Origin: an uncultured Candidatus Saccharibacteria bacterium | GTDB taxonomy: Bacteria > Patescibacteriota > Minisyncoccia > Phycocordibacterales > UBA5272 | Reading direction: 5' to 3' | DNA length: 44,979 bases | Assembly (NCBI GenBank): GCA_964510805.1 | Contig: CAZEDG010000005.1 | Span: forward strand, 1 to 44,979 | In this document: positions 3,209-38,345 of the stretch, piece by piece | Layout of the letters: the number at the start of each line of letters is the position of its first letter | Position numbering within the stretch: the stretch's first letter is position 1 | Notes under the pieces: model-generated | What the model was told of the DNA's origin: nothing | Databases searched by the model: none | What the model saw: only the letters and a program-made list of their open reading frames with translations | Program-made: the position numbers and the translations under genes

Positions 3209-3457
3209 ACAGTATGAAGAGTGAGGAGCGTAGACGGAGATGCAAAAACTAGATTTTAGACGTTAGACTTTAGATATTAGAAAATACAGACAACACAAAA
3301 TACAAGAGCGACACCTTCGGTGTCGCTCTTGTGTTCCTTTGTTTTGTCTATGTTCTGTAAGCGAAGCAATCTGTGCTCTAGCGTCTACACTGTCTAATAT
3401 CTAACGTCTAAGACCTAGTTTTAAACTTCATTCCTCATTCTTCACTCCTCTTTCTAT
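3209..3457. repeat. Intergenic mosaic element, copy A1 (palindrome 3302-3332)
   Basis: ACAAGAGCGACACC-TTC-GGTGTCGCTCTTGT, a 14-bp perfect stem. Flanked by TAGANNT heptamers on the left and their complements on the right, with GCGAAGC at 3361. Lies between convergent genes. Confidence 0.9.
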
Positions 3458-4579
3458 TTAGAATGGATTCTTTGCACCACGCACTTCGAAGTGAAGATGA
3501 GGGCCTGTTGATCTTCCTGTGTTACCAACTTCACCAATCTGCTCACCTTGTGAGACGCTTTGACCTGATGACACATATACTGCACGAAGGTGTGCATAAA
3601 CAGTCTGCACTCCATTATCATGAGTGATAATTACCATGTTTCCGTATCCTCCATTGTATCCTCCTGTTTTTGCAACAATCACCTTTCCTGTTGCAGAAGC
3701 TAGTACAGGAGTTCCTGGTGTTGCACCAATATCGATACCATTATGACCATGAATTCCTTGCGTCTTGCGACCACCAATAACAGGACGAGTAAAGAATCCG
3801 CTTGGTGTTGTGTAACTATAAAAATCAAGAATCTTAGACTTCTTAGTCTTAGAAGCAAGGGTTTTCTTCTTAGGAGTTTCTGTTACTGCAATTTCACCAT
3901 CTGGCACAATTACCACATCACCAGAAGCAAGCTTAGATTCTTCGGTGAGCCCGTTATAACTAGCTATATCATCCTTGTCTGCTCCATACTTACGAGCAAT
4001 GGATGCGAGGGTATCGCCTTGTTTTACGGTGTGCTTAATTCCTGTGATAGGGAGGATAATGAGTGTATCTCCTTTTGTGATTGTTCTAGAAGAAAGATTG
4101 TTTGCCCACATAATAGTATTCACAGAAACACCAAAAAGCTTTGCAACATCTTGTATTGTGTCGCCCTTTTTTACTTCATACACACTAATTGTGTCGGTGG
4201 TAGGGAAGTCGACATCTTCGGTTGAGACACGGAGAGATCCAGACACCGCCTGAAGTGCTTCTTGGTTAAGGTCAACCTCATTATCTGTTGTGGTGCCGTC
4301 AACAATTGTTGGCTTGAAGATCGACATAGTCTGAGAAGTAAGAGGGGCCGGTTCTTCTTGTGCTTCTGCTTCTTCTATAAAAAGAGTCTTGAATTTATTG
4401 GCAAAAGTAGAAAAAACTGACGCATGAGCATACACAGGAAATGTGACGCTAAGTGCACAAGCAATGAGAAGAAACGTATGTGACGTAATCTGGTTACGTT
4501 TTTTTTGAGCTACTATAATAGTTGTTATAGATGAAGGTAAAGATAAAAATGTATCTTTAGAGACAATAATTGTATTCAA
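3458..4579 (-). CDS. LysM-LysM-M23 metallopeptidase (peptidoglycan hydrolase/activator family); start uncertain (TTG)
   Basis: Two LysM repeats (YEVKKGDTIQDVAKLFGVS, HTVKQGDTLASIARKYG). M23 motifs HNGIDIG, YAHL and HLHFE. Signal-like segment ending VYAHA. Confidence 0.92.
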   Translation of the reverse strand: MNTIIVSKDTFLSLPSSITTIIVAQKKRNQITSHTFLLIACALSVTFPVYAHASVFSTFANKFKTLFIEEAEAQEEPAPLTSQTMSIFKPTIVDGTTTDNEVDLNQEALQAVSGSLRVSTEDVDFPTTDTISVYEVKKGDTIQDVAKLFGVSVNTIMWANNLSSRTITKGDTLIILPITGIKHTVKQGDTLASIARKYGADKDDIASYNGLTEESKLASGDVVIVPDGEIAVTETPKKKTLASKTKKSKILDFYSYTTPSGFFTRPVIGGRKTQGIHGHNGIDIGATPGTPVLASATGKVIVAKTGGYNGGYGNMVIITHDNGVQTVYAHLRAVYVSSGQSVSQGEQIGEVGNTGRSTGPHLHFEVRGAKNPF

Positions 4580-4719
4580 AAATTGTCAAGAATTTTCTCC
4601 CAAAAGGAGTGCACTTATAAGTATACCAGAGCGGAAGAATCATTCAAGAATAGACAAGTGCAAAATATGTGGAGAAGTATCATAAAAGTCTTACAAAATA
4701 AAGTATACTAAGAATATCT

Positions 4720-7700
4720 ATGAGTGGAGGAAGACCTACTAATACCAACCTTAACGACGGATCGACGAATCCGTTTTTGGCGAGGCTTAGAGCGGGAGCG
4801 CAGGAAGATGAGATTTCTACAAAAGATCCTAATCTCTTAATTTCTCAGACTTCCGAAGATGATCTTTCTGATCCGTATCGTCTTAGTCCAGAAATGGGTA
4901 CAGAAAATGAAATTAAGAGGCATAATCCAGAAGCTAGACCAATAGCTGACACTGTCCCAAAAACTGCTTTTGTGGTGAGGCACAAAAAAGACAACGAACC
5001 ATCTGCCGGCACCTTCCATTCAAATGTTCAAGAAACTAACCCAGAGACAAGCGCCGAAACTGTTCTTAAGGGGAGATTTGCTGATGTTAACTCTGATCCT
5101 GATTTTTCTCTAAACGATGAAGCAATACACGGAACCCCTTCAGGCCTAAAGTCTAAGCTCAGTAGAGTTGGAGGGGAACTAAAACCGAAAACACAACTAG
5201 ATGAAAGAACAAAAAGGCTACTTAAGATTGCTGAAGCTGCTCTTGCCTCCGGACTTGATTTAGATGAAGAAGGCAATCTTGTAGGAGATATTCCTCTAAC
5301 TCCTGAAGAAATACTTGATCAAAGAAGAAAAGAAAGAGAACCTTTACTTGCAAGACTTCATGAAGTACGGGCAAGATTCGTAGAAAAAGAAAAACAAATT
5401 AAGAACAATAATCTTACTATATCTGATTTTGGCGCTCTTAAAAATCTTTTATTTATAATTGAAGGAATGCTTTCTGATGCGGAGCTTGAGAATTTTCAAG
5501 ATCAAGAAAAAACTATTCAAGACGGTTTAGACAACGTAGAAAAAGGGATAGACTACCTAGAAAAACAAATCGAGGAAGGACTAAAAAAATCTACTCGAAT
5601 CCTAGAGCGACAAGAATCAAGAACAAAATACGCAGAACTTACCGGAAGCTACACTGCGTTTCAGAGAGGGCCATTCTACAAAGATCTTAATGACGCACAG
5701 AAGCAACAACTCTCTGCGGAGTTCTACGAACTTGATTGGCTTAAGACATCGCCTGGGGAACACATAGATCTTTCGGTTGATGATATTAACCAAAAGCTAG
5801 AAGCACTCGAAAAACTTCTCACCGAATCAGAAGAGGTAATCACAAAGATAGCAGAGCAAAATGAAGATAAGCTTCGTATCGAGGAGAACATCAGAAGACA
5901 GGGGACGCTTCTTTTGGGGACTTTTGTTCACCTCAAAGAAGATGTCGAGAGGGTAAAAGCAACACTAACCGAAAACATACCTCTTGTAGCAGTGCTCGAC
6001 GTCTTAGCAGACGAAATCGAAGATCTTGATAGAAAGATTCTAGACAAACCAACAACAGGTGACTTAGAAGACCTACAAAAAAAGGTCGGGGAGTACAAAG
6101 ATAAAGTCAAAGAATTTAACCTTGAAGTTGAAAAATTAGAAAAAGCATCTGCCGTTGAGAACTTCGGTACTTGGAGCGATCTCTCAAGAATTCTAAGATA
6201 TATTCCAGGCAAGAATTCAAAAGATCCTAGACAAAAACCAACATCTGGTCGTTGGGTTATCACTATCGAAGACAGAGAAGTTGCTCCAAAAGACCAGAGT
6301 GCTTGGTCAGGAGTTGATACCGACTTCAAAAGAATATGGAAGAGATACGAAGATCTTTTCTCAGGAGCAAAAGCAACGGACAAGGCTACCCGCTTCAAGG
6401 ATATTATACAAGATAAAAATCTTATCTTGCGCGCAGTCCTTGATCAAGATGCAACACTTGCACTCACCTTAATCAAGACCATTGCACCTAAGATCGATGA
6501 GGCTTTTGTTACTTGGGAAAAAGAGCAAAATCAACTAGCAGAAGCGAAGGAAAGTATTGCAAAACAAGAAGCTGAAACAAAAGCAAAAATAGAGCAACAA
6601 GAAGTGCTTACAAAAAAACTAGATCTGTTACTTAAGGCTTTTGATGAACTTGAGAATGGGTATCGTGACTTTTCTACAGCTCCCAACAAAAGTACTCTTG
6701 AGTTTGAACACATCAACAGACTCTTAAAATCATTAAGAACGAAGAGGGAAGAACTAGAAGCAGAGAAAGGAAAAGATATAAAAGAGAGAGACTTAAAAGA
6801 AGAAGTTCTGTTGAAGTTTTTTCAAGATATCTCTTCGTGTAGAGAGGAAGTGGCAAGAATTCTTAGCAAGTCAGAGACTTTACGACCTTCTTTAGTTGGA
6901 AAAGTTGGCAAAAGACTCCTTCGCAAAGGGGGTGGTTCTATCGAGATCACAGAAGACACGCTTGCCAGCCTTGCAAGCGGTATCCCTGCCGAAGGCATGC
7001 AAGACAACCCTCTTAGCCCAGAAGGGTTCTTTGATGAGTTGGACAGAATATCAGAAATACATGAGACAGATATACGAGATGTACAATTTGACACCTTAAG
7101 AGAATCATTAGAGAACAACCTCGATAATGAGGAAAACTATGCAACACAAAACCTTGCAAATGAAAGCGACCTTCACAAAGCACAAATACGTATAAGATTC
7201 AAAGAAGCATGCGAGCAAGAACTTTACGGAAAAACCATGTTTTACGATACAAAAAACAGAAACTTTGATTCCTCTATCTTTGAAGAAACTAAGAACGCTC
7301 GAAATGAATTTCTTTCGATGTATGCAACTAAGTTTTTAACTAATTTATTAGTAGAAGAAACTAAAGATATCGTTGAGCATGTCTTTGCTAAACACAGACT
7401 TATTCTTAAGCTTAGCTACATAGAGCTAGCCAAGAAAAAACTTACAAAAATCGATGAACTTGAAAAAATAGCAAATAAAGAGAGCAAAGAGGCGCAAGAA
7501 GTCCAAGCAAGTATAGACACAACCACAGGACTTCTTACACTTATCGTAAGTGAACTTAACTTGCTTAATCTTAATGATAAAAAAAGAAAAGATTCTGTTT
7601 ACAAAGAATTCAATAAAAAAACTGAATCAGAAGCTCCACAAACCTACTCACCAGCAAATGACCCTTCTGTAAAACGTCCAAAGAAATCTGGACCAGTTTT

Positions 7701-8532: not shown

Positions 8533-8547
8533 TACAAAAAAAATCTT

Positions 8548-8835
8548 ATGAACTTCGATCAACTTTATGCACAGCTAGTACAAGACTTCCATCTACAAGA
8601 TCTTCCAGAAGAAGATCGCGATGAGATGCTTGTTGAAGTTGCAAAAACAATACAGAAGCAATTTCTTCTTGATGTATATGACAAGATAGGCGAGACACAG
8701 TTCGATGCACTTCAAGCATCAGCAAACATGGGGGAAGAATTTTATGCAACCACACTTAAGCATGTCGTTCCTGACTATGAGCAACTCTTCCAAGAAGCTC
8801 GCAAGAAGGTGGTGGAAGCGTTCCATAATGGATAG
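8548..8835 (+). CDS. Small helical protein resembling the CPR-enriched DUF5663 family
   Basis: 95 aa. Pattern LQDLPEEDRDEML...IQKQFLLDVYDKI...VPDYEQLFQE recognised by eye. Confidence 0.6.
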   Translation: MNFDQLYAQLVQDFHLQDLPEEDRDEMLVEVAKTIQKQFLLDVYDKIGETQFDALQASANMGEEFYATTLKHVVPDYEQLFQEARKKVVEAFHNG

Positions 8836-8966
8836 ACGTTAGGCGTTAGACTTTAGACTCTAGATAAAAATACAATACAGAGAGCGAGGCCGAAGGCCTC
8901 GCTCTCTGTATTTGGGTGTCTACTATTAACTATTAACTTATCTGTATTTTCTAATATCTAAAGTCT
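8833..8966. repeat. Intergenic mosaic element, copy A2 (palindrome 8874-8912)
   Basis: AATACAGAGAGCGAGGCC-GAA-GGCCTCGCTCTCTGTATT, an 18-bp perfect stem. TAGACGT/TAGACTT heptamers on the left, TTAACTA heptamers on the right. Confidence 0.9.
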
Positions 8967-8989
8967 GCCATATGCTAAACTAAAGCATC

Positions 8990-10927
8990 ATGACTACAGG
9001 TACACCGCAATTAAATGACGCCCAAAGAGAAGCCTCCAACTACATAGAAGGCCCACTTCTTATCGTTGCCGGGGCCGGGGCAGGTAAGACCAAGACGCTC
9101 ACAGAACGCATTGTTACTATTATCAAAAATGGCGTCGACCCGCGCAACATTCTCGCAGTAACCTTCACCAACAAAGCGTCCAAAGAAATGCGCGAGCGTA
9201 TCATCTCTCGCTTAGAAGATGAGCACATTATCGAAAAAGAAAACCCATATCATCCAACTCCAACAATCAAGACCTTCCACTCACTTGGTCTTATGCTTCT
9301 CAAGGAGCAATCACAGCGTGCAGGACTTCTTAAGAATCCAACCATTCTCGATAGCCAGGACTCTCTTAGCATCATCAAGCAAGCGCTTGAGAAGTTAAGT
9401 CTTGATCCTAAGATACATGATCCTTCTAAGATACGAGGAATTATCAGTAGAGAAAAAGGTGATTTCGTAAGTCAGAAGGATTATGAAAAAAAAGTAGCAA
9501 CCGCACAAATGGATATTATTTCTTCTGTGTGGAGACTATATGAAGAGAAGCTTCGCGAACAAAGAGCAGTAGACTTCGACGATCTCATCGTACGTGCAGT
9601 GATGCTTCTTGAGGAGCATGCAGATATACGCGCATACTACAGGAAACGCTTCGCATATATCCATATTGATGAGTATCAAGATACCAACATGGCACAATAT
9701 GCTTTTGTTAAGCTTCTTGTTGATGAAGAAAAAAATAACATTTGTGTAGTAGGTGATACTGATCAAAATATCTATAGCTGGAGAGGGGCCAACATCAGAA
9801 ACATGCTTCGTTTTGAAAAAGACTTTCCTGGTACAAAAGTAATTCTTCTTGAAGAGAACTACAGATCAACAGGTAATATTCTACGTCTTGCAAATAACAC
9901 AATCAAAAAAAACACTGTACGCACCGAAAAGAATCTTTTTACATCACGCGGGGAAGGGGAGCTTGTCGAGATCACCCCATGCTTCGACGAAGGAGCTGAA
10001 GCTGAGCATGTTGCACGTGCATGTAAAGCGCTCATTGACGCTGGAGAAAATCCAGAATCGATCGCTGTACTCTACAGAGCTAACTTCCAATCTCGTGTTC
10101 TTGAAGAAGGGTTTCTCAAAGAAAATGTTCCCTATAACCTTCTTGGTACAAAATTCTTCGAGAGAAAAGAAGTGAAGGATGTCATGAGTTACCTTCGCGC
10201 AGGAGAGAACAGAACTTCTCAAGCGGATTTGCGAAGAGTATTCGACACACCTAAGCGTGGTATCGGTAAGGTTACAGTTGCTAAGATTTTTGCAGGAGAA
10301 CCTGTCCCAAAAAGCGCAGAAGAAAAAGTAAACAAAGTGTACACATTCCTAGACACAATTATGGAGCGCTTAGAGACCGAGCCTCTTTCTCACGTCATCT
10401 CGATGATTATTGTTGATTCTGGAATGGAAAAAGAAATGCTCGAAGGAAGCAGTGAAGATAGAGAACGCCTTGAGAGTGCACGAGAACTGGTCTCTCCGAC
10501 TGTCAGATATGATCATATGAAGGGTATCGAAGCACTTCCTACATTTCTTGAAGAGACTTCACTACAGGCGGATCAAGATAATGACACCAAGGAGAAGAGC
10601 GGTGTACGTCTCATGACTATCCATGCATCGAAGGGTCTTGAGTTCAATCATGTATTCATTGTTGGACTTGAACATGATCTTTTTCCCCACAAAAACATAG
10701 GTAACCGCAAACGAACAAAAGAAGAGGAAGAAGAGGAAAGGAGACTTTTCTATGTTGCGGTGACACGAGCAAGGAAGCAACTTCATCTTTCCTACACTGA
10801 GCTTCGTACCATCTTTGGCCAGAAGCAGATCAATACACCAAGCGAATTCTTAGATGATGTCGAAGATGAAATCGCAAACCATAATGATATCTATTATAAA
10901 GAAGGTGGGGCGATAGTATACATCTAA
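8990..10927 (+). CDS. uvrD: UvrD/PcrA SF1 DNA helicase
   Basis: AGAGAGKT, FTNKA, DEYQDTN, VGDTDQNIYSWRGA, LEENYRST, TIHASKGLEF, EERRLFYVAVTRA. Confidence 0.97.
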   Translation: MTTGTPQLNDAQREASNYIEGPLLIVAGAGAGKTKTLTERIVTIIKNGVDPRNILAVTFTNKASKEMRERIISRLEDEHIIEKENPYHPTPTIKTFHSLGLMLLKEQSQRAGLLKNPTILDSQDSLSIIKQALEKLSLDPKIHDPSKIRGIISREKGDFVSQKDYEKKVATAQMDIISSVWRLYEEKLREQRAVDFDDLIVRAVMLLEEHADIRAYYRKRFAYIHIDEYQDTNMAQYAFVKLLVDEEKNNICVVGDTDQNIYSWRGANIRNMLRFEKDFPGTKVILLEENYRSTGNILRLANNTIKKNTVRTEKNLFTSRGEGELVEITPCFDEGAEAEHVARACKALIDAGENPESIAVLYRANFQSRVLEEGFLKENVPYNLLGTKFFERKEVKDVMSYLRAGENRTSQADLRRVFDTPKRGIGKVTVAKIFAGEPVPKSAEEKVNKVYTFLDTIMERLETEPLSHVISMIIVDSGMEKEMLEGSSEDRERLESARELVSPTVRYDHMKGIEALPTFLEETSLQADQDNDTKEKSGVRLMTIHASKGLEFNHVFIVGLEHDLFPHKNIGNRKRTKEEEEEERRLFYVAVTRARKQLHLSYTELRTIFGQKQINTPSEFLDDVEDEIANHNDIYYKEGGAIVYI

Positions 10928-11066
10928 GAGACTAGATGGTAGATGTTAGACTTTAGGTATTAGAAAAATACAAGACAATAGAAAAAGGGCGGCACCTAAC
11001 GGTGTCGCCCTTGTTTGTTCTGTAAGCGAAGCGGTCTGTTGTCTGTCCGTCTGTTATCTATTTCTC
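10928..11066. repeat. Intergenic mosaic element, copy A3 (variant hairpin 10985-11012), probable bidirectional terminator
   Basis: AAGGGCGGCACC-TAAC-GGTGTCGCCCTT with one G.T pair. ACTAGATGGTAGATGTTAGACTTTAG on the left, GCGAAGC at 11026. Lies between convergent genes. Confidence 0.8.
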
Positions 11067-11558: not shown

Positions 11559-11590
11559 CTTTCCTCCATATTCATGAAGAATCTTGTTGC

Positions 11591-11619
11591 ACACTACATG
11601 AATAAACCAACTGTGTCAA
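11591..11619 (-). promoter_or_regulatory. Sigma70-type promoter
   Basis: TTGACA-17 nt-TAGTGT on the minus strand, directly after the upstream terminator. Confidence 0.65.
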
Positions 11620-11628
11620 CAAAAGAAA

Positions 11629-11659
11629 AAGCGCGGGTAGCCTTTGGCTACCCGCGCTT
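11629..11659 (-). terminator. Intrinsic terminator of the 11676-12854 gene
   Basis: 14-bp perfect GC-rich stem AAGCGCGGGTAGCC/GGCTACCCGCGCTT, followed by a T-tract on the minus strand. Confidence 0.85.
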
Positions 11660-11675
11660 GCGATGAGATGAACTC

Positions 11676-12854: not shown

Positions 12855-12901
12855 GAGAATTCTCCTCAAAATGGTTGATTTCAAAACAGCAATCAGATAC
12901 A

Positions 12902-12945: not shown

Positions 12946-12961
12946 GGATTCTACATTTTCC

Positions 12962-15120: not shown

Positions 15121-15270
15121 CCATCGTTGCATGGGCCCGCAACGACGGTCATTGTTTGAATGAGGAATGAAGAAAGAAGACCGCTTCGCTTGTAGAAAAC
15201 CAGAAGTTAGATGTTAGACTTTAGGTATCTGTAGCTACTAATTACGAATAACTAATAACCAATTACGACC
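15113..15270. repeat. Type-B hairpin (15113-15156) plus heptamer flank
   Basis: AACAATGACCATCGTTGC-ATGGGCCC-GCAACGACGGTCATTGTT with one mismatch. The second copy is at 22763. Followed by GCTTCGC and TAGATGT/TAGACTT/TTACGAA heptamers. Confidence 0.85.
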
Positions 15271-15271
15271 C

Positions 15272-16177
15272 ATGCCCTACACACTTCTCCTAAGAATCAC
15301 ACTCTTCTCCATCTTTCTTGGTTGTATAGCTCTTACTGACTCTCTTTTTCATCTTGGAATTAAGGACATGCTTCCAGAGAGCGCTCAAAATCTTATCTGG
15401 TACCCCTTCATCTTCGGTACTCCACATATCGTTGCGTCATTCTTTTCGTATGCACATAGTGGTTACTATACGCACTACAAAAAACTTATCCTTCAGTCGC
15501 TCGGTGTAAGTCTTCTTCTTGTGTTTGTTTCTTTTATCTTTCTTCCACACTACGCAATGTATCTTTTTATTGCATATACTATGTACCACGTCGCATCACA
15601 ACAAATAGGTCTATCGAGGCCCTACAGTACCAACAAAACTTCGTATGATATGTGGAAATATTTCAGTCTTGTAGGCATTATCGCGATCACACTTTTTGTA
15701 GGAGGGGAGAATATGATGGTTCCTCTAACTATCATGCTTCCTTTTCTTCTGTATACCGGAAGCATCTCGCTTGGATTAGCTACATTCTTTGGCTATGAAA
15801 CTTTTAAAACATGGAATTACGGCATGGCAACAGTTGCGCTCTTTACTCTTGCTCTTCTTGTGATACTTCTTGGCTATCCTTTTGTTGGTATTCTTATGGC
15901 AAGACTTTCTCATGATATAAGTGCGTATAGCATCTACATCACTCATGCATGGAAAGGGGACACACTGTTTACCCGTGAATCACTTCGTTACTATACTCCT
16001 GTGTTCTATACAGTCTTCTTCTCACTTCTTTCGCTTGGTATAAGTTATCTTCTTGTGTCACATGTTAATTCAGTCTTTGTGCTTATCATTGTCATGGTTC
16101 TTTCTCTTATGCACTACATGCTCGAAGGAAAGGTATGGAAGAAAGGAGGAATGCATAGGGGGATGCTTGGTAATTAG
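15272..16177 (+). CDS. Polytopic membrane protein with four intramembrane His motifs (possible metalloenzyme)
   Basis: About nine TM helices. Motifs FGTPHIVAS, MYHVASQQIG, RLSHDISAY and LMHYMLEGKVWK. Confidence 0.7.
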   Translation: MPYTLLLRITLFSIFLGCIALTDSLFHLGIKDMLPESAQNLIWYPFIFGTPHIVASFFSYAHSGYYTHYKKLILQSLGVSLLLVFVSFIFLPHYAMYLFIAYTMYHVASQQIGLSRPYSTNKTSYDMWKYFSLVGIIAITLFVGGENMMVPLTIMLPFLLYTGSISLGLATFFGYETFKTWNYGMATVALFTLALLVILLGYPFVGILMARLSHDISAYSIYITHAWKGDTLFTRESLRYYTPVFYTVFFSLLSLGISYLLVSHVNSVFVLIIVMVLSLMHYMLEGKVWKKGGMHRGMLGN

Positions 16178-16279
16178 TAATTCGTTATTCGTAATTAGCA
16201 GAAGCGACACCTTCGGTGTCGCTTCTGTACTTTTGTATTCTGTATTACACGAATTACGAATAACCAATAACGAATTACT
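16176..16279. repeat. Intergenic mosaic element, copy A4 (palindrome 16199-16227)
   Basis: CAGAAGCGACACC-TTC-GGTGTCGCTTCTG. The outer inverted arms are AGTAATTCGTTATTCGTAATT and AATTACGAATAACCAATAACGAATTACT (7-bp units). Confidence 0.9.
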
Positions 16280-16343
16280 GGTTCCCTGTTCATAACTTCT
16301 TCCTTCCTCCACCTATTCCGGGCTATACTTCAAGTATCTTTCT

Positions 16344-17288
16344 ATGTACGCACCAAAAAGTGATCAAGCAATGACCACCAAGAAGGCTCTTACTGTGCTT
16401 GGTATGGTTGGTTTTCTTTTCATGCTTACTTTTATTGTTCCTGCTCGACTCGTTGGACTAGACGATACACCTAAGAAAAAGAAGCGTGACCCACTTGTAC
16501 TTAAAACCTATCAAGAGCTCAAGCAGTTAGACGGAGACAAAGATGGTAACGGTATTCCTGATTGGAAGGATGTTATCAATGCGACCATGAGCACTTCAAC
16601 TAAGCAAACTGTCGGAACCAAGACACTTGATGAAGCGACCAGAAAACGCCTTGAAGATCCTAACAACTTAACGGTATCGTTTTCCAAAAATATTTATATC
16701 GCATCAGCATACGCCGAGAAGCAAGGTAACTTAACCAAGGAGCAAAAAGAAGAGCTTGTTCAAACTGTTCTCGAAGGGGAGAGGGTTAAGTTAACAAGAA
16801 AAGAATACACTGTCGATGATCTTACTTTAATAAAAGATGAATCTCCTTTATTTATCAAGTCTTATGGTAATAATCTTGGCACAATCTACTCAGAGGCTCT
16901 TAAAGCAAATGCAACCCAAAATGACCTTGCAATTCTAAAAGCTTACGAAGAAAGTAAAGATAAGACACTACTTACAGGTTTTGTTGTTAAAAAAAATATT
17001 ATCCTAAAAGCTGTTAACGAACTCGCAACGATGAGAGTTCCTTATTCGGCAACACCTCTTCATCTCGAGGTTCTTAACAAATTATCAGAATACTATGCTA
17101 TTTTGGATAATCTCTCCGTCGCTGATTCTGACCCGCTACGATCTGCTCTTGCGTTCAACGCTTACAAGGACAACATGGTGTCTATGCACTCAGCATTTAT
17201 CGCACTTAATAACTATTTTGTTTTTAAACAGATAACTTTTTCAAAAAGTGATTCTGGTTTTAGTGTCTTTTCGGAGTATACTCAATAA
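16344..17288 (+). CDS. Membrane-anchored helical protein with a thrombospondin type-3-like Ca-binding loop
   Basis: N-terminal TM helix and DKDGNGIPDWKD loop. First gene of the T4SS-like cluster. Start could be 16368. Confidence 0.75.
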   Translation: MYAPKSDQAMTTKKALTVLGMVGFLFMLTFIVPARLVGLDDTPKKKKRDPLVLKTYQELKQLDGDKDGNGIPDWKDVINATMSTSTKQTVGTKTLDEATRKRLEDPNNLTVSFSKNIYIASAYAEKQGNLTKEQKEELVQTVLEGERVKLTRKEYTVDDLTLIKDESPLFIKSYGNNLGTIYSEALKANATQNDLAILKAYEESKDKTLLTGFVVKKNIILKAVNELATMRVPYSATPLHLEVLNKLSEYYAILDNLSVADSDPLRSALAFNAYKDNMVSMHSAFIALNNYFVFKQITFSKSDSGFSVFSEYTQ

Positions 17289-19009: not shown

Positions 19010-19215
19010 AAGGACTAGATGTTAGCTACGAGACTTTAGAGGTTAGAGATACAAGAGCGACACCTTCGGTGTCGCTCTTGTATTCTTGTATCTCGTCTGT
19101 AGTCTATTTATCTGTGTTCTGTTGTCTCATTTTGCCTTCTGCCTCGCTCTTGTATTCTGTGTTATCTGTATTTTCTAAAGTCTAACATCTAATATCTAGT
19201 GCCATTAACTATCTG
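19010..19215. repeat. Intergenic mosaic element, copy A5 (palindrome 19049-19083)
   Basis: ATACAAGAGCGACACC-TTC-GGTGTCGCTCTTGTAT. Starts ACTAGATGTTAG and ends CTAACATCTAATATCTAGT. Shares a 57-bp block with copy A6. Confidence 0.9.
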
Positions 19216-22765: not shown

Positions 22766-23005
22766 AAACAATGACCGTCATTGCATGGGCCCGCAATGAC
22801 GGTCATTGTTTCTAGACAACAGACCACTTCGCTACAGACAGTAAGACAACAGACTAATACAAAAGCGACACCGAAGGTGTCGCTTTTGTGTTCTTGTATC
22901 TCGTCTGTAGTCTATTTATCTGTATTCTGTTGTCTCATTTTGCCTTCGATGTCGCTTCTGTGTGCCGGTATCCACTATTAACTATTAACCATTAACTACT
23001 AACCT
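22763..23005. repeat. Composite element: type-B hairpin (22763-22814) + copy A6 (22859-22889) + 57-bp block + TTAACYA heptamers
   Basis: 22-bp perfect stem around ATGGGCCC. ACAAAAGCGACACC-GAA-GGTGTCGCTTTTGT. 22891-22947 matches 19083-19139 at 56/57. Confidence 0.9.
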
Positions 23006-26935: not shown

Positions 26936-26972
26936 TTTATACTAAGAAAAAATACCTCTGTATACGATTTCT

Positions 26973-27824: not shown

Positions 27825-27875
27825 TGGTGTATTACCTACACACATTTATATTAGGTTCTTGCTATACTAAGCTCC

Positions 27876-30878: not shown

Positions 30879-30880
30879 AA

Positions 30881-31198
30881 TTATCTAAGTGTAGCAAATG
30901 CTTTTTGTAATTCTAAACTAAACTGTGAGTAGGGGGTAGTGAGTGCTTTTTGTTTTGGATAAATCACACAAGAATACGTTGGTGGAATACTAACTGTCTG
31001 TAAAAAAGTATACACTTTTCTTTTTACATAATTTCTATCAACTGCTTTTTTAATTGTTTTTTTGGAAATAACACAAGCGTATTTTTGGTTCGGTAAAGCT
31101 TCTGTATAAGCGATATCGAATAATTCATGACGAAAAAAGACCCGAGGACGTAATCCTTCGAAGTCTTTTTTTGAAAATCGCTTCGTTACAGGAAGCAT
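30881..31198 (-). CDS. rnpA: Ribonuclease P protein component
   Basis: MLPVTKRFSKKDF, VISKKTIKKAVDRNYVKR (RNR-like motif). Synteny with rpmH and yidC. Confidence 0.92.
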   Translation of the reverse strand: MLPVTKRFSKKDFEGLRPRVFFRHELFDIAYTEALPNQKYACVISKKTIKKAVDRNYVKRKVYTFLQTVSIPPTYSCVIYPKQKALTTPYSQFSLELQKAFATLR

Positions 31199-31216
31199 AC
31201 ATCTACTAATCTAAGC

Positions 31217-31351
31217 TTATACACTAAGCTTTTTGCGACCAATACTTCTTCTTCTTGCAAGAGCTTTACGTCCACCTTTAGTAGACATTCTTACTAGGAA
31301 TCCGTGGGTTGTACCTCGCTTCTTTCTTTTTGGATTATATGTAATCGACAT
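31217..31351 (-). CDS. rpmH: 50S ribosomal protein L34 (44 aa; not in ORF track)
   Basis: Translated by hand: [50 protein letters not shown] 6 nt upstream. Confidence 0.96.
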
Positions 31352-31483
31352 GGCGCTATTCTACATTAAAACTACGAACAAATCAAGAAAGTATCTTTTT
31401 TGAAATAATAAAGAGAAAATACTTCAAAAAAAACATACGTCAAGTTGAATCTCTACCATTCATGTGTATACTTACTCATACAT

Positions 31484-32821: not shown

Positions 32822-32826
32822 AGAGA

Positions 32827-32999
32827 CTAGATGTTAGATATTAGACTTTAGAGATTAGAAAATACAAGAGTGAAGCCTTCGGCCTCACTCTTGTATTTTT
32901 GTATCTACTATTAACCATTAACTATTAACTTATTTATACTTCTCTAACATCTAGTTTCTCATTTTCATTCTTCATTCCTCACTCTTTTCCTAACATCTA
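32827..32999. repeat. Intergenic mosaic element, copy A7 (palindrome 32859-32899)
   Basis: TAGATGT TAGATAT TAGACTT TAGAGAT TAGAAAA heptamers, then AAAATACAAGAGTGAAGCC-TTC-GGCCTCACTCTTGTATTTT. 12-bp inverted ends at 32827-38 and 32943-54. Confidence 0.9.
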
Positions 33000-33004
33000 T
33001 CATC

Positions 33005-33230
33005 TGTGTATAACTCTGTGGATATGTTAATAATAAGAAAAGAATAACTTCATAGTTATCCTTTTGATAGGTATACAATTCTCTTTCTTACCCACAACCG
33101 AGGTTTCTTTTCCTACATATGAGCTCTTAGTAAGTTCCTTATAAAACTATTGAAAATAAAAGATTTTTAAGAATTTCCACATCATCCACAGACCTATACT
33201 TAGTATTATATTTTATATATACTAAGAACT
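33005..33230. other. Probable oriC (dnaA-dnaN intergenic)
   Basis: DnaA-box matches TGTGTATAA 33005, TGTGGATAT 33017, TTACCCACA 33088, ATTTCCACA 33173 and TCATCCACA 33182, followed by an AT-rich tract. Confidence 0.75.
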
Positions 33231-34322
33231 ATGAAATTCGAATGCAAAGGTGATACATTTATAAAAGCGGTACAGCAAGTAGCAAAGGCTCGTAGTAAAG
33301 TGCAGTCTAAGAATGCCTTACAAGATATCCATCTTGAGATAACAAACCATCTTCTTACACTTCGTGCAACGAACTTAGAACTTTTTTGTGAAAAGAGTAT
33401 TTCAGTAAAAGGTGTTGTTAACGGAGCTTGTCTTATTCAAGGAGAAACACTGCTTCGTATCCTTGCGACATTTAGTTCCAAAGATATCACACTTAACTGT
33501 GAGTTAATTGAAGGAGTCTTTGCGATTACTACTGATAAAGGTACTATAGAAATCAAAACAACTCCATATGAGGATTTTCCAACACTACCACCACAAGGAG
33601 ATCAGATAGGGATGGTTAATAAGAATATAATAAGTACTCTCCTTAAAGAGGTTTCATTCTGTTCTGCAAAGAGTGATATAAAGCCAGAAATTGCCTCTGT
33701 ATACCTCTATACTAAAGATTCTTATATTTACTCCGTTGCAACTGATTCTTATCGTCTTGCCGAAAAATCTGTACGTAACGAGAATGATTTAGAGTTCTCA
33801 TTTCTTGTTCCAGAAAAACATATCCCAGAGATATTACAGATCATCGGTGAAGAGGAAGGTGATATTCTTCTTACTAAGAGTGAAAATATCGTTTCTCTTA
33901 CAGGGGAAACTTTTACGTTATCAATTCATACAATTACTGGATATTTTCCTGATTACAGACAACTTTTTCCAAAAGAATTTATTACACATATAACCCTTCA
34001 TAAAGATGATCTTCAGAAGGCGCTTACTTTAACCACGTTATTTAACGATCAGTATTCTCAAGTTGAATGTATTTTTGCTTCGGATAAGTGTACATTCCAT
34101 AGTCGTAGTGAAAAAGTTGGACAAGTAACTCACTCTATTGATATTACTAAAGAGGGTGATGATGTAGAAGCAAAATACAATAATAGATTCTTCCTTGAAG
34201 TACTTCCTTATATCGAAGGTAATGAAATTACTTGTAAGTTTTCTACTCCTAATAGACCTGTTTTTATTCAAGGAAAGAAAGATATTACGTTTACGTACCT
34301 CCTTATGCCTCTTAATAGGTAA
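33231..34322 (+). CDS. dnaN: DNA polymerase III beta sliding clamp
   Basis: LRATNLEL, EDFPTLP, VATDSYRLAE, GYFPDYRQLFP, YLLMPL. Follows dnaA. Confidence 0.96.
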   Translation: MKFECKGDTFIKAVQQVAKARSKVQSKNALQDIHLEITNHLLTLRATNLELFCEKSISVKGVVNGACLIQGETLLRILATFSSKDITLNCELIEGVFAITTDKGTIEIKTTPYEDFPTLPPQGDQIGMVNKNIISTLLKEVSFCSAKSDIKPEIASVYLYTKDSYIYSVATDSYRLAEKSVRNENDLEFSFLVPEKHIPEILQIIGEEEGDILLTKSENIVSLTGETFTLSIHTITGYFPDYRQLFPKEFITHITLHKDDLQKALTLTTLFNDQYSQVECIFASDKCTFHSRSEKVGQVTHSIDITKEGDDVEAKYNNRFFLEVLPYIEGNEITCKFSTPNRPVFIQGKKDITFTYLLMPLNR

Positions 34323-34325
34323 ATC

Positions 34326-34556
34326 ATGGATCCTAAACTTTTTAGTCGTCATATTACTCATCTTAAAAATGTTCAAGATGAAAAGAATATTCTTATAGAA
34401 AAGATATACAAAGAAACAAATGTTCTTCTTGATGATAAAGAAATACTCCTTTCTAAAAAAGAAATTTCTTTAAGAGTAAGCTCGGTAAAGAGAATGATAC
34501 TTAATTCTAAAAAACTAGGAGACATCATGAAGAAAGAGGGGTATGTACTTAAGTAG
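34326..34556 (+). CDS. Small basic hypothetical protein (DciA/DUF721-like candidate)
   Basis: 76 aa, 3 nt after the dnaN stop. Helix-strand-strand-helix-like pattern. The family call is weak. Confidence 0.55.
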   Translation: MDPKLFSRHITHLKNVQDEKNILIEKIYKETNVLLDDKEILLSKKEISLRVSSVKRMILNSKKLGDIMKKEGYVLK

Positions 34557-34712
34557 AAAGAAGAGTGAAGAGTGAGGAATGAAGTTGAAATACAGAAATA
34601 CAAGAGCGAGGCCGAAGGCCTCGCTCTTGTGTTCGGTATTAACCATTAACTATTAACTATAAACTATTAACCTGTATTTACTCCTCATTCTTCACACTTC
34701 TCTCTTCATTCT
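34557..34712. repeat. Intergenic mosaic element, copy A8 (palindrome 34600-34630)
   Basis: ACAAGAGCGAGGCC-GAA-GGCCTCGCTCTTGT. GAGTGAA/GAATGAA heptamers on the left, TTAACYA and CTCATTC heptamers on the right. Lies between convergent genes. Confidence 0.9.
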
Positions 34713-34714
34713 GA

Positions 34715-36904
34715 CTACTGTACCGTTGTTGTTGCTATCTCAACAGGAGGTTTTTCTTGTGGAATTGTATTTTGGGTGTTTTGTTGAGAAGCACAAGCGA
34801 GAGGGTGATTGATAAGCCATTTCTGTATCGCGGTTTCCCAGAGGGTATATTGAGAGTCTCCTTGAGGATAATTTGGATAAGGGCCACTTGGATCACTTTT
34901 AATCACATAATTAAGAATAGTATGAATACCATCCTCTGCACAGTATGATCCTCGTAAAACAGGCTTAGAAGAGGTGTTAGGGGTTAAGTCAGGGAAATAC
35001 TCAACTTGAGTGTTTTGCAGTGCTCTATCCATAGCTTTTCGCCATACAGGGGCAAGGACGAACCCTGCAGTTCTCTTATCAATAGGAGTGTTGTCGTTAT
35101 TTCCTGCCCACATACCAATTACTAAAGATGGTGTATAACCAACAACCCAGACATCTTTATAATCATTAGTGGTTCCTGTTTTTACAGCAACAGGACGGTC
35201 TTTAAAATAAAGTGCAGAGTTAGCTCCATAACTAGGAGTTCTTGCTACGTTATCAGAAAGAACACTGGATATCTGAGAAGTAACTTCTTCCCCGAGTACT
35301 TCGGTTTCTGCAGGAGTAAACTTTTGAAGAACACTATCATCTCTGTCACGAACTTCGAGAATACCCTGAGGTTTATGATAAATACCATTATCCGCAAAGA
35401 CTCCATATGCATTAGTAAGTTCAAGTAAAGTGATTTCACCTCCACCAAGTACAAGAGAAAGTCCATATCTATTAGGATCGTTAATTGTCGAAAGTCCCAT
35501 AGCTTGCGCCAAATTTACAGCGTTTTGTATTCCTGTAAGATACAGCAATTTTACTGCAGGAATGTTAAGAGATTGAGCAAGAGCTTCACGTAGAGTAACA
35601 GGGCCACGGAATAATCCGTCATAATTATCAGGAATATAACAAGAGTCAGAATCAATCCCTTGTCTTATAGGATTACCGTCTGCATCACAAAGACTACTGA
35701 ACTGTGTTTGTACATCGAAGAGTACTGTTTCTGGTGTGTAACCGAGTTTAAATGCAGATGCATAGACAATAGGTTTAAAAGAAGATCCTGGTTGTCGAAG
35801 TGCTGTTGCAATATTATATTGACCAGGAATTTCTTTATCAAAAAAATCTCTTGACCCTACCATTGCAAGGATTTGTCCTGTTTTTGGATCTGATGCTACA
35901 AGAGCTGAGTTAGATGCTTTAAACTTTTTCATATTCTCAAAAGCACCATCTTTTACAATCTGCTCAAGATCTTTTTGGAGATCGTAATCAATTGTGGTGA
36001 CAACTTTTAACCCTCCGTTCTGAACCATATCAACACCGTATTTATCTTCAAGGTATTCACGAATATACATCACAAAATGAAGTGCTTTTCCGCTGTTAGA
36101 AGCATCTCTTTCGAAAGAAACAGTTTCTTTTTGAGATGTTTCTTTTTGATCTTTTGTGATGTAACCAAGTTCATACATTCTTTCAAGAACAAGATTTTTT
36201 CTTTTTTCAAGAGCGTCTCTATGTTTTCCGTAAGGGGAATAGTAGGTTGGAGCTTGAGGAAGTGCTGCGAGGTATGCAGATTCGGTAAGACTTACTTCTT
36301 TTGCATGTTTATTGAAATAGGTAAGTGAAGCTTCTTCTACTCCATAAATAGTTCCACCGTATGGACTTTCGTTAAGATAAATTTGAAGTATTGTTTTCTT
36401 TGGAAGTTCTCTATCTAGTTTTAGAGAGAGAATTATTTCTTTTATTTTACGAGAAATAGTTTTTTCTTGAGTAAGGAGAGCATTCTTAACAACTTGTTGA
36501 TTAATAGTAGATCCTCCTTGAACATATCCACCAGAGGTGATATTTGCTAGCATTGCTCGTATAAAAGAGGTTGGTCTAAAACCGTGATGTTCATAAAAAT
36601 GAGCATCTTCTATAGAAATAGTCGCTTCTTGAATATAAGGACTTATAGAGTCTATAGGAACTGCAGTTCTTCGTACGTTATCATGAATATTATAGAGCAC
36701 TACTTTTCCTGTCCTGTCATAGATTTTTGTTGAGTTGGCAACATTTCTATTCTCAAAATTATTAAAATCAGGAAGTTGTATAGTAGAAATCCATGTAATA
36801 ATAAGCGCTGAAGCTATTACAAAAAGCGAAAAAAGGACCAAAAAAATCTCTCGAACAATTCGATGTTTTATTTTTTTCTTCTTATGTGCATAGTAATCTG
36901 ACAT
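34715..36904 (-). CDS. Class A penicillin-binding protein (transglycosylase-transpeptidase)
   Basis: GT51 motifs EDAHFYEHHG, GGSTINQQVVKN, RKIKE. Transpeptidase motifs GSSFKP, SLN, KTGT. Confidence 0.96.
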   Translation of the reverse strand: MSDYYAHKKKKIKHRIVREIFLVLFSLFVIASALIITWISTIQLPDFNNFENRNVANSTKIYDRTGKVVLYNIHDNVRRTAVPIDSISPYIQEATISIEDAHFYEHHGFRPTSFIRAMLANITSGGYVQGGSTINQQVVKNALLTQEKTISRKIKEIILSLKLDRELPKKTILQIYLNESPYGGTIYGVEEASLTYFNKHAKEVSLTESAYLAALPQAPTYYSPYGKHRDALEKRKNLVLERMYELGYITKDQKETSQKETVSFERDASNSGKALHFVMYIREYLEDKYGVDMVQNGGLKVVTTIDYDLQKDLEQIVKDGAFENMKKFKASNSALVASDPKTGQILAMVGSRDFFDKEIPGQYNIATALRQPGSSFKPIVYASAFKLGYTPETVLFDVQTQFSSLCDADGNPIRQGIDSDSCYIPDNYDGLFRGPVTLREALAQSLNIPAVKLLYLTGIQNAVNLAQAMGLSTINDPNRYGLSLVLGGGEITLLELTNAYGVFADNGIYHKPQGILEVRDRDDSVLQKFTPAETEVLGEEVTSQISSVLSDNVARTPSYGANSALYFKDRPVAVKTGTTNDYKDVWVVGYTPSLVIGMWAGNNDNTPIDKRTAGFVLAPVWRKAMDRALQNTQVEYFPDLTPNTSSKPVLRGSYCAEDGIHTILNYVIKSDPSGPYPNYPQGDSQYTLWETAIQKWLINHPLACASQQNTQNTIPQEKPPVEIATTTVQ

Positions 36905-36960
36905 TTGTCTATAGTACCATATACTTAAAGAAAAGTGGTGCGTATGATAGTATGTACACT

Positions 36961-38160
36961 ATGGATAAAGTAATTATTGATGAAAAACGTATTGACGAGC
37001 TTCTTTCTCGTGGCGTTGAAGATATTATTGTAAAAGAAGAGTTAAAACAAGTTCTTCTTTCAGGAAAACAACTTCGTATTAAGCTTGGGGTTGATCCTAC
37101 AAGTGCAAAGATTCACCTAGGAAGAGCAATTCCTCTCCGTAAATTAAGAGAGTTTCAAAAACTAGGACATCAAGTAGTGTTTATTGTTGGTGATTTTACA
37201 GCACAGGTTGGTGATGCTTCTGATAAGTTGGATAAACGCCCAATGCTTACACGAGCGCTTATTGACGAAAACTTAAGAGATTACAAAAACCAAGTCGCTA
37301 AGATTCTTGATATTACAAAAACAGAATTTGTATACAATAGTGAATGGCTTTCTCGTCTTTCTTTTGAAGAGGTGACCAAGCTTGCAGAGTGTTTTTCAGT
37401 TCAACAAATGCTTGCACGAAGAAATTTCAAGGATCGATATGATAACGGAGTAGAAATTTCTCTACGAGAGTTCTTGTATCCTATTATGCAAGGATATGAT
37501 TCTGTTGCGGTAAAAGCAGATATTGAGCTTGGTGGTTTCGATCAGTTATTTAACCTAAAAGCAGGGCGCGTGATTCAGGAATACTTTGGACAACCAAAGC
37601 AAAATATCATGACGTTCCAAATGCTTGAAGGAACCGATGGACGTAAGATGTCGAGCTCTTGGGGAAATATTATTTCTATTGTTGATGATCCGGATACAAT
37701 GTTTGGCAAAGTGATGGCAATCAAAGATGAGCTTCTTGTGAAGTATTTCACTCTTTGTACAGACCTCCCTCTTGAAGAGGTTAAGAAAATAGAAAAAGAA
37801 CTTGAAAAAGGTTCTAATCCAAAAGATAGTAAGATGCGCCTCGCTCAAGAGTTGGTAACGATGTATCACACCGAAAAAGACGCAACGCTTGCAAAAAATT
37901 CATGGATCTCCGCTTTTCAAAATAAAGGAGTACCAGATTCTATTCCAGAACTTGTGTTACAAGAAGGTAAAGAATTAGGAGAAATGTTTGTACAAGAGGG
38001 GGTTGTTGTTTCTAAAACTGACTGGAGAAGACTTATTACTGATGGTGCAGTGAGGGATATGGATAAAGATGTAGAAATTACTGATCCAAAACAACTTGCG
38101 TATGAAGGAGTCTTTAAAGTTGGAAAGAAACGATTTATTAAGATAGTAATCAAGCACTAG
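36961..38160 (+). CDS. tyrS: Tyrosyl-tRNA synthetase
   Basis: KLGVDPTSAKIHLGR, YPIMQGYD, GGFDQLFN, KMSSS, C-terminal S4-like domain. Start is 36952 or 36961. Confidence 0.97.
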   Translation: MDKVIIDEKRIDELLSRGVEDIIVKEELKQVLLSGKQLRIKLGVDPTSAKIHLGRAIPLRKLREFQKLGHQVVFIVGDFTAQVGDASDKLDKRPMLTRALIDENLRDYKNQVAKILDITKTEFVYNSEWLSRLSFEEVTKLAECFSVQQMLARRNFKDRYDNGVEISLREFLYPIMQGYDSVAVKADIELGGFDQLFNLKAGRVIQEYFGQPKQNIMTFQMLEGTDGRKMSSSWGNIISIVDDPDTMFGKVMAIKDELLVKYFTLCTDLPLEEVKKIEKELEKGSNPKDSKMRLAQELVTMYHTEKDATLAKNSWISAFQNKGVPDSIPELVLQEGKELGEMFVQEGVVVSKTDWRRLITDGAVRDMDKDVEITDPKQLAYEGVFKVGKKRFIKIVIKH

Positions 38161-38162
38161 AC

Positions 38163-38345
38163 ACTAGATGTTAGAAAAGGAGTGAGGAATGAGGTAAGAA
38201 GAATGAAAGTGAAAAACTAGATGTTAGAGAGGTACAAACAGGTTAATAGTTTATAGTTAATGGTTAATAGTAGATACAAAAACACAAGAGCGAGGCCTTC
38301 GGCCTCGCTCTTGTGTTTTCTAATGTCTAAAGTCTAACATCTAAA
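38163..38345. repeat. Intergenic mosaic element, copy A9 (palindrome 38279-38319); inverted near-copy of A7
   Basis: AAAACACAAGAGCGAGGCC-TTC-GGCCTCGCTCTTGTGTTTT, a 19-bp stem. The reverse complement aligns with 32827-32999 with three 7-nt indels. Confidence 0.9.

Follow-up and report, generated by a model that had tools for sequence, protein, structure and literature searches.

What are nine look-alike palindromes doing within 45 kb of a small bacterial chromosome? The question was raised by a stretch of 44,979 nucleotides from an uncultured Candidatus Saccharibacteria bacterium (assembly GCA_964510805.1, contig CAZEDG010000005.1, positions 1 to 44,979 of the forward strand), which we refer to as the window. 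A first-pass annotation, made from the letters alone, had described a family of intergenic palindromes with a GAA triloop and had likened them to repetitive extragenic palindromic (REP) sequences and bacterial interspersed mosaic elements (BIME), perhaps doubling as bidirectional terminators. We found that the palindromes are a true sequence family and not a product of chance. The reading we favour, which we hold to be probable though well short of certain, is that they are bidirectional terminators forming a dispersed, copied family, with each copy being the GC-rich apex of a nested quasi-palindrome built from heptamers.

All nine palindromes are present, none displaced by more than 3 nt from where it had been placed (Table 1). 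Their stems are 12–19 bp long and perfect in six copies. The spacer is a 3-nt TTC or GAA closed by a C-G pair in eight copies, while at 10985 the stem has diverged and the loop is TAAC. The arm variants that had been listed (GACACC/GGTGTC, GAGGCC/GGCCTC, GAGCG/CGCTC and GAGTG/CACTC, with outer arms AAGAG, AGAAG, AAAAG and AAGGG) were all found, each complementary within its own copy. The proposed compensatory covariation held when 106 family copies were compared: 95.2% of cells were paired vs 77.6% in shuffles, double-sided changes numbered 276 vs 78, and none of 500 shuffles reached the observed values. Slid controls gave 38–54% pairing. A covariance model (CM), which the first-pass annotation had suggested building, was trained on 106 family copies and recovered exactly the nine sites in the window at E < 1e-6, with the rest of the 45 kb at noise level. 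By this model the other strong hairpins in the window, at 11629–11659 and 43623–43654, lie outside the family. A comparison with Rfam gave no match at the gathering threshold.

The placement and build of the copies resemble those of terminators. As had been claimed, each of the nine is intergenic and just 3' of a stop codon, at a distance of 22–119 nt; five lie between co-directional genes, four between convergent genes, and none in the window's four divergent regions. Across ~1.5 Mb of clade DNA, the density of GC-apex hairpins per kb was 1.54 in convergent, 0.94 in co-directional and 0.37 in divergent intergenic regions, and 0.028 within genes. Among 55 hairpins from unbiased loci, 48 have an A-rich 5' arm and a T-rich 3' arm, and one has the opposite polarity. 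Across 125 family copies, positions 9–19 from the loop are 46–95% A on the 5' arm and T on the 3' arm. Since a perfect palindrome is the same on both strands, a transcript from either side runs through an A-tract, then a GC stem and then a U-rich shoulder. A simple scan for consensus terminators ranked the family copies highest, and in one relative (L007) a family copy stands directly 3' of a tRNA gene. The slot between tyrS and ruvC, home to the copy at 38279, contains a long perfect palindrome of the same design in each relative examined, with a sequence that differs from one relative to another. The suggested bidirectional-terminator architecture was therefore borne out by position (nine of nine at gene 3' ends), by the A-rich and T-rich arms (48:1) and by the GC apex. 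From position and build we infer that the nine palindromes are bidirectional intrinsic terminators or 3'-end stem-loops, a role read from their architecture.

The compensatory covariation need not mean selection at the RNA level, because hardly any G-U pairs are seen (no more than 3% out to position 14) and the orientation of the loop is neutral with respect to transcription (29 GNA, 36 UNC, p = 0.46). Counted on the transcribed strand as an asymmetry measure for RNA-level selection, G-U and A-C pairs numbered 13 vs 16. Loop orientation was also random with respect to the replication fork (17 vs 16) and to outer-arm asymmetry, with two copies of the frame AATACA...TGTGTT holding GAA and one holding TTC. 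Template switching between arms is an established mutational mechanism that corrects quasi-palindromes and inverts loops as well. Selection from both transcription directions and such template switching at the DNA level would explain equally well why the symmetry is perfect and the changes compensatory. That the loop is limited to G(A/T)A or its complement is a genuine feature, though one indifferent to strand.

The family does not end at the stems. While the nine palindromes described in the first-pass annotation are real, the repeated unit is far larger than the hairpin, reaching up to ~150 nt. The intergenic regions are mosaics of TAGAYNT, GAAGAGT/GAGGAAT, CTATTAA and AATTCGT heptamer arrays, a CTGTAAGCGAAGC motif and a second palindrome type, set as inverted arrays around the hairpin. 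These heptamer arrays and long nested palindromes, absent from the earlier description, are half of the phenomenon. The BIME-like mosaic organisation that it had proposed was recovered, with modules A–F recurring around the hairpins in varying combinations. The window has 20 arrays with a period of 7, all intergenic; 18 are within ~120 nt of a family hairpin and the others are in the 15121–15271 intergenic region. Entire intergenic regions are predicted to fold into one nested hairpin each, as computed for 3209–3457 (dG -99.1 kcal/mol, z -10.65, 0 of 200 shuffles as good), 16170–16290 (dG -48.9 kcal/mol, z -9.55) and 32822–33000 (dG -51.9 kcal/mol, z -8.30), with no shuffle as good in the latter two either. 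Copies also align to one another well beyond their stems: over 152 nt, 32829–32973 is 84% identical to 38349–38198 of the opposite strand, the two differing by 7-nt indels and an inverted loop, 19049–19139 is 92% identical to 22857–22947 over 91 nt, and 34600–34675 is 91% identical to 38314–38238 over 77 nt.

Occupancy differs among related genomes. We compared the window with dnaA- and uvrD-anchored syntenic stretches from 62 relatives (1.09 Mb), in which the CM found ~18 sites (0.017/kb), compared with nine in the 45 kb window (0.20/kb), a difference of ~12-fold. The tyrS-ruvC slot accounts for 11 of the ~18 matches in relatives. Identical occupancy in all relatives, which according to the first-pass annotation would mark ordinary homogenised terminators, was not seen, as only the tyrS-ruvC slot is filled clade-wide. 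One relative, L284, is collinear with the window from g08 to dnaN (g08–g26) except that g11 is missing. It has no family hairpins and no period-7 arrays where the window has four and nine, and its intergenic regions of 63, 78 and 81 bp correspond to regions of 166, 189 and 259 bp with mosaics in the window. Sites 16199, 19049 and 22856 are matched by short hairpin-free intergenic regions in L284 and other relatives, with three or four such sites overall. The ortholog of the 19049 region in L284 spans 78 bp without a hairpin, and orthologs of the 22856 region span 40–124 bp without the element in seven relatives (L019, L020, L021, L024, L072, L284 and L287). At the 3' end of dnaA (site 32859), relatives have unrelated AT-rich hairpins or none. 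In another relative, L016, a family copy occupies an intergenic region whose counterpart in the window (666–716) lacks a hairpin, and the ortholog of 3299 has a different apex within the same inverted TAGACTT frame. By this comparison, copies appear to have been gained at new intergenic sites together with the heptamer mosaic. Contigs assembled independently from the same population stop at 8873, 8874 and 8902 (three assemblies, at hairpin 2) and at 22894 and 22948, and ends at hairpin or repeat boundaries are expected of a genome-wide repeat. At the strain level no empty sites were found; contigs that are 98–100% identical show the same occupancy with point changes only.

The family also extends across the clade. 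Its conserved core of ~21 nt reads AGCGA(C/G)(A/G)CC, a G(A/T)A or T(A/T)C loop closed by C-G, and then the complement. The exact 21-mer AGCGACACC-TTC-GGTGTCGCT was found at 18 loci in 14 metagenome-assembled genomes (MAGs). The degenerate core was found at no fewer than 105 loci (at least 105), and ~57 of the matches listed are in this small clade; the remaining listed matches are scattered in high-GC phyla at about chance level (by our estimate ~35 expected in 596 Gb). A 27-nt version of the core gave 44 further sites in groundwater-type metagenomes. The contexts of the core all differ, the outer stems vary yet stay complementary, and heptamer flanks are frequent. Genomes use "dialects" of the core (GACACC, GACGCC or GAGGCC), and hybrid copies, in which the position that differs has an A-C or G-T pair, resemble intermediates between dialects. 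With the loop left free in the search, TAC/GTA was found in 72 of 125 copies, TTC/GAA in 46 and other loops in 7. The GAA triloop of the first-pass annotation thus describes eight of the nine window copies (TTC/GAA), but the wider family has GAA or GTA, and in a 98%-identical strain (L180) the hairpin at 22856 has a GTA loop rather than GAA. C-GNA-G loops reportedly give very stable single-stranded DNA hairpins (work attributed to Hirao and Yoshizawa).

Could the copies be ordinary terminators that arose independently, alike through shared constraints (A-tract, GC stem, stable triloop, U-tract) and through inheritance at orthologous positions, without any copying between sites? A design found throughout the clade, a tyrS slot kept among orthologs and the occurrence of the same core in unrelated phyla, by chance or convergence, would all accord with such a history. 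Yet the similarity of 77–152 nt reaches far outside the stems, the density is 12-fold above that of syntenic DNA in relatives, hairpin and heptamer mosaics stand where relatives have short, hairpin-free sites, assemblies break at the repeats, and the ~57 listed core matches in one small clade compare with a chance expectation of ~35 over all 596 Gb. We consider independent origin largely refuted by the long alignments between copies and by the density contrast, and highly improbable overall. Together with the terminator role, a dispersed and copied family that is old in this clade, has proliferated in the lineage of the window and is separate from independently evolved terminators is what we regard as the probable answer.

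If copies spread, an obvious candidate is a nuclease of the REP type. The first-pass annotation was right that the window encodes no mobilising enzyme, as transposase, HUH and integrase domains were found in none of its 35 open reading frames (ORFs). The REP mechanism that it had drawn on did not fare as well, with no HUH or Y1 protein among these ORFs, no GTAG head and no replication-strand bias. In a REP/REPIN system, a RAYT (HUH Y1) nuclease from elsewhere in the genome could mobilise the palindromes in trans, and any terminator activity would be incidental. A family of short GC-rich intergenic palindromes with mosaic neighbours, a core conserved at non-orthologous sites across the clade and a C-GNA-G loop type in 118 of 125 copies would all suit this origin. 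However, a phmmer search (E ≤ 10) of 2.44 Mb of partial clade genomes found no RayT-like ORF, a weak negative with its single E. coli RayT query. GTAG is missing from the foot of the hairpin, the stems lack the imperfections of REP palindromes, being perfect or nearly so, and each site has one palindrome instead of a REPIN doublet, with a half-hairpin remnant ~60 nt away at two sites only. Orientation is unbiased with respect to the replication fork, and the strict A-rich and T-rich arm polarity goes unexplained, since a purely DNA-level element needs none. We judge mobilisation of this kind to be very unlikely.

Non-autonomous transposons resembling miniature inverted-repeat transposable elements (MITEs) were also considered. 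Here the mobile unit would be a composite of ~150–250 nt whose inverted TAGAYNT arrays (ACTAGATGTTAGA...TCTAACATCTAGT) act as terminal inverted repeats for the transposase of an insertion sequence (IS) elsewhere. Composite units with inverted ends and long-hairpin folds are indeed present, their presence varies among relatives, and two copies lie in opposite orientation. Against this, no two pairs of copies are similar over the same stretch, which points to a mosaic and not to a fixed unit; no target-site duplication is recognisable and array lengths vary in 7-nt steps; no transposase was found in the window or beside the copies examined; and inverted heptamer arrays exist without a GC hairpin. 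The last case was observed in L288, where inverted (TAGGTTG)n and (AACCTAT)n arrays lie ~190 nt apart (10110–10135 and ~10320–10350) around the intergenic region on the oriC side. A MITE-like origin is, in our view, unlikely. As a possible mobilising enzyme we also considered g11, a gene flanked by inverted arrays and missing in L284, and rejected it: its product is a polytopic membrane protein without a Pfam match. Viral contigs gave no match to the family.

Conservation is distributed differently in paralogs and orthologs. Among paralogous copies, the apical core and loop are better conserved than the outer stem, while orthologs at the tyrS slot keep the outer stem and differ freely in the apex from relative to relative. 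One way to read this is that the core itself (~21–27 nt, AGCGAC(A/G)CC - G(A/T)A - GG(Y)GTCGCT) is a tiny mobile hairpin, akin to the small dispersed repeats (SDR) of cyanobacteria, that inserts in either direction into the apices of AT-rich terminator palindromes or heptamer arrays already in place, by a hairpin-specific activity other than RAYT. It would explain why paralogs share core and loop without sharing the outer stem, why orthologous slots keep the outer stem and swap the apex, and why loop orientation is random to flanks, transcription and replication. We put this forward tentatively, as a minority possibility.

The same pattern could alternatively reflect a clade-specific protein whose specificity fixes the apical 21 nt and the GNA loop, binding the hairpins as DNA (as a cruciform or as a dimer, e.g., in nucleoid organisation) or binding or processing RNA 3' ends. 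The conservation of core and loop above the outer stem among paralogs agrees with a binding site, and the G(A/T)A or T(A/T)C loop, present in 94% of copies yet strand-agnostic, fits duplex or cruciform DNA or either transcript. No candidate protein was found, though, the free variation of the apex at the tyrS slot runs the other way, and the long similarity between copies and the heptamer arrays are left unexplained. A protein site as the whole explanation seems to us quite unlikely. Least credible of all, and in effect refuted by the half-site counts, are DNA uptake sequences whose inverted pairs form terminators, as in Neisseria and Pasteurellaceae: lone half-sites numbered 30 vs 19 ± 4 expected in 1.13 Mb, with one lone 9-mer in the window, and the density of 0.02–0.2/kb compares with what is said to be ~1/kb for known uptake sequences. 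The idea could draw on the clade-specific core with its dialects and on the natural competence of Patescibacteria, whose machinery is widespread (PMC11665869, PMC10633639).

Several observations weigh against bidirectional terminators that spread as a copied family. The U-tracts are interrupted by G or A (UUGUAUU, UUGUGUU). The copies at 19049 and 22856 sit inside a gene cluster resembling a type IV secretion system (T4SS) that is uninterrupted in L284, and no obvious promoter was found before g14, which is odd if a strong terminator lies upstream. No insertion boundaries or target-site duplications could be defined, as the nearest differently occupied relatives are 40–94% identical in protein; at that distance, gain in the lineage of the window is not rigorously separated from loss in the relatives. 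Finally, the core matches in unrelated high-GC phyla leave room for possible convergence of GC-rich terminator stems to some degree.

For a copied family of terminators, we would propose the following mechanism. Transcripts from either side would fold the hairpin before a U-rich stretch, leading to termination or to protection from 3' exonucleases. Copying may occur by recombination or template switching among the repetitive intergenic arrays, or by an insertion mechanism of another kind; a RAYT-type enzyme is not implicated. Template switching within a palindrome would keep the arms complementary and flip the loop.

Table 1. Family hairpins and associated repeat modules in the window (bits and E-values are from the CM).
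Feature	Positions	Strand	Structure	Context and remarks
Hairpin 1	3299–3335		AATACAAGAGCGACACC-TTC-GGTGTCGCTCTTGTGTT	Convergent, Mg-chelatase-like g02 / M23-LysM peptidase g03; 54.6 bits; terminator-like on both strands
Hairpin 2	8874–8912		18-bp perfect stem, GAGGCC subtype, GAA loop	Co-directional, 39 nt past g05 stop; CM match
Hairpin 3 (diverged)	10985–11012		AAGGGCGGCACC-TAAC-GGTGTCGCCCTT	Convergent, after uvrD-like g06; 32.6 bits, E 5.7e-7
Hairpin 4	16199–16227		13-bp perfect stem, TTC loop	Apex of 112-nt nested palindrome of AATTCGT/ACGAATA heptamers, 16172–16283
Hairpin 5	19049–19083		16-bp perfect stem, TTC loop	Opens 91-nt repeat 19049–19139
Hairpin 6	22856–22892		GAA loop	Opens 91-nt repeat 22857–22947
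Hairpin 7	32859–32899		GAGTGAAGCC subtype, one A-C mismatch, TTC loop	38 nt past dnaA stop
Hairpin 8	34597–34633		GAGGCC subtype, GAA loop	Convergent, small ORF 3' of dnaN / PBP1
Hairpin 9	38279–38319		19-bp perfect stem, TTC loop	Between tyrS and conserved small acidic ORF
Nested quasi-palindrome	3215–3444		GAAGAGT-type and TAGAYNT heptamers, hairpin 1, module E, inverse arrays	Nearly the entire convergent intergenic region
Period-7 array (example)	3250–3281	+	TAGACTT type	
Module E	3351–3375	+	CTGTAAGCGAAGCRRTCTGT, contains GCGAAGC	More copies at 11016–11044 and 40394–40427; inverted at 22814–22833 and ~15183
T/G-rich tail	19084–19139	+	TTGTATT-like periodicity	92% identity with 22893–22947; followed by half-hairpin remnant 19134–19156
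Paralogous tail of 91-nt repeat	22893–22961	+		Includes half-hairpin remnant 22943–22961
Module F (second palindrome type)	22766–22811		AAACAATGACCGTCATTGC-ATGGGCCC-GCAATGACGGTCATTGTTT; 19-bp stem, 8-nt loop	Partial copy at 15127–15157
Composite repeat unit	32829–32973	+	TAGAYNT array, hairpin, CTATTAA array, inverse TAGAYNT, TCATTCC array	
Second composite copy (~150 nt)	38198–38349	-		Inverted orientation

Some further features of the modules were observed. Module F is unrelated to the main family; its full copy abuts the g15 stop codon and its partial copy follows the g10 stop. The motif of module E also occurs in intergenic regions of three relatives (L002, L022 and L031), and its GCGAAGC is what we take to be the classic, extraordinarily stable DNA mini-hairpin sequence. 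The TAGAYNT arrays at 3250, 8833, 10931, 19013, 32828 and 38163 start within a few nt of a stop codon and have a TAG every 7 nt, which provides stops in all three frames within ~15 nt; at 8833, the array opens with the stop codon of the gene itself. These arrays may serve as back-up translational stops, or this may be coincidence. In one relative (L289, 4082–4180), 13 tandem units of GATGACA directly follow the g15 stop. In the window, g11 (15272–16177, 301 aa) is bracketed by inverted ACGAATA/AATTCGT arrays (15237–15266, 16178–16198 and 16249–16278), and it may have arrived or been retained together with the mosaic.

Two unannotated ORFs adjoin family copies. A 76-aa ORF directly 3' of dnaN (34326–34556, + strand) is conserved in relatives (MD..LF.K...), and it is the stop codon of this ORF, not that of dnaN, that hairpin 8 follows. 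Between hairpin 9 and ruvC, a highly acidic 59-aa ORF, MIIEEEEPKGDL...ANDEGYW (38358–38537, - strand), was found in all relatives examined.

Exact-core matches and protein relatives place the window in the core chromosome of a bacterium of the Patescibacteria, or candidate phyla radiation (CPR). Those matches, and all close protein relatives, come from MAGs that carry the labels Saccharibacteria, Paceibacterota, Nomurabacteria or Parcubacteria; a cyanobacterial source, which the heptamers had suggested, was rejected for this reason. The nearest DnaA in the species-level genome collection is 94% identical. Window genes include yidC, rnpA, dnaA, dnaN, PBP1, tyrS, ruvC, ruvB, a uvrD-like helicase and ksgA, and the T4SS-like secretion cluster is of the PrgI/VirB4 type. 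Its first gene, g12 (16344–17288), has a weak Pfam match, below threshold (E = 0.004), to a restriction-endonuclease-like domain of contact-dependent inhibition (CDI) toxins. Cumulative GC skew turns near 33–34 kb (minimum near 32–34 kb), so the replication origin is expected inside the window. The dnaA-dnaN intergenic region at 32990–33230, with DnaA-box-like motifs (e.g., TGTGGATA at ~33005 and ATCCACAG near 33185), is the probable oriC; a 40-nt block in the dnaA-dnaN intergenic region, CCACAGACCTATACTTAGTATTATATTTTATATATACTAAG, is near-invariant among relatives.

Two other observations concern the window at large. A TATACT-like -10 box was observed 8–20 nt 5' of 13 of the 35 start codons (e.g., 23012, 4703, 33217 and 27862), at a position kept in L284 and L019. 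Judged by sequence, these start-proximal boxes suggest leaderless or very short-leader mRNAs and separate promoters for many single genes. A contig of the same population (L183) is 99.99% identical to the window from 545 on, while its positions 1–1997 differ wholly from window 1–544. The switch point is inside an NYN-domain gene (138–665), and on the diverging end L183 has a T2SS-E ATPase gene along with an 82-aa ORF. The mismatch may reflect a structural variant or else a chimeric assembly.

Patescibacteria have tiny, streamlined genomes in which transcription punctuation is almost unstudied. A terminator design belonging to one clade and readable on both strands (A-tract, GC apex, C-GNA-G triloop and U-tract) would be useful for annotation and for the genetic tools under development for Saccharibacteria. 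Even reduced genomes carry a proliferating layer of hairpins and heptamer arrays, which in the window makes single intergenic regions about three times as long, fragments short-read assemblies and shows turnover among related species. Should the core prove to be a miniature mobile hairpin, it would be the first such element in Patescibacteria, whose genomes of ~1 Mb are otherwise poor in mobile DNA. The literature searched contained no description of such elements in Patescibacteria, which is not proof of novelty.

How does the family compare with known systems? In architecture and placement, and in being alike on both strands, it matches the bidirectional intrinsic terminators reportedly described by Ju, Li and Liu in 2019, in which an A-tract, a symmetric hairpin and a U-tract lie between convergent genes. 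Known bidirectional terminators are individual, unrelated sequences, whereas the window copies form one family with long shared flanks and also stand between co-directional genes. Inverted pairs of the DNA uptake sequence (DUS) of Neisseria and the uptake signal sequence (USS) of Haemophilus are said to act as terminators (attributed to Kingsford et al., 2007). There, too, a clade-specific conserved sequence with species dialects forms many terminator stems, but DUS and USS are mostly single copies, at ~1 per kb and also within genes, while the half-site of the window family is not enriched alone.

Hairpin-forming MITEs (Correia, ERIC, RUP and BOX) are surveyed in PMC2267715. Like the window composites, they are dispersed intergenic stem-loop units of 100–250 nt, sometimes with terminator or promoter activity; the composites differ in having no fixed length or ends, no target-site duplication, no parent IS that we found, and arms made of variable tandem arrays.

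As repeats, the window elements are closest to REP/BIME and to the short tandemly repeated repetitive sequences (STRR) and SDR of cyanobacteria. REP and BIME elements of Enterobacteria and Pseudomonas, with their RAYT enzymes and REPINs (PMC3116915), are reported to stabilise mRNA or attenuate transcription. Shared with them are short GC-rich multi-copy palindromes, intergenic positions at gene 3' ends, mosaics with short motifs and a lineage-specific sequence. The window family differs in its perfect palindromes, fixed triloop and strict terminator polarity, in the missing GTAG head and REPIN doublet, in that no RAYT was detected, and in its mosaic partners, which are tandem heptamer arrays arranged as nested inverted repeats.

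The STRR of Nostocales are hairpin-forming 7-bp repeats of unknown function (PMC2670836). Both they and the window arrays are tandem 7-bp intergenic repeats able to form hairpins. Elhai et al. (Genome Res 18:1484, cited in PMC3116915) reportedly described, in 2008, SDR as hairpin elements of 21–27 nt that are embedded in STRR arrays and carry compensatory changes. On that description, SDR and the window family have in common array-embedded hairpins, compensatory changes, presence or absence among relatives, and no known mobilising enzyme. They differ in phylum (Patescibacteria vs Nostocales) and in sequence, and the window hairpin is central in inverted arrays and has terminator polarity; homology of the window core to SDR1-8, across phyla, appears unlikely. 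The parallel with Nostocales, where the origin of these repeats remains unexplained, suggests that a general enzyme-independent route may exist, by slippage and template switching in quasi-palindromes.

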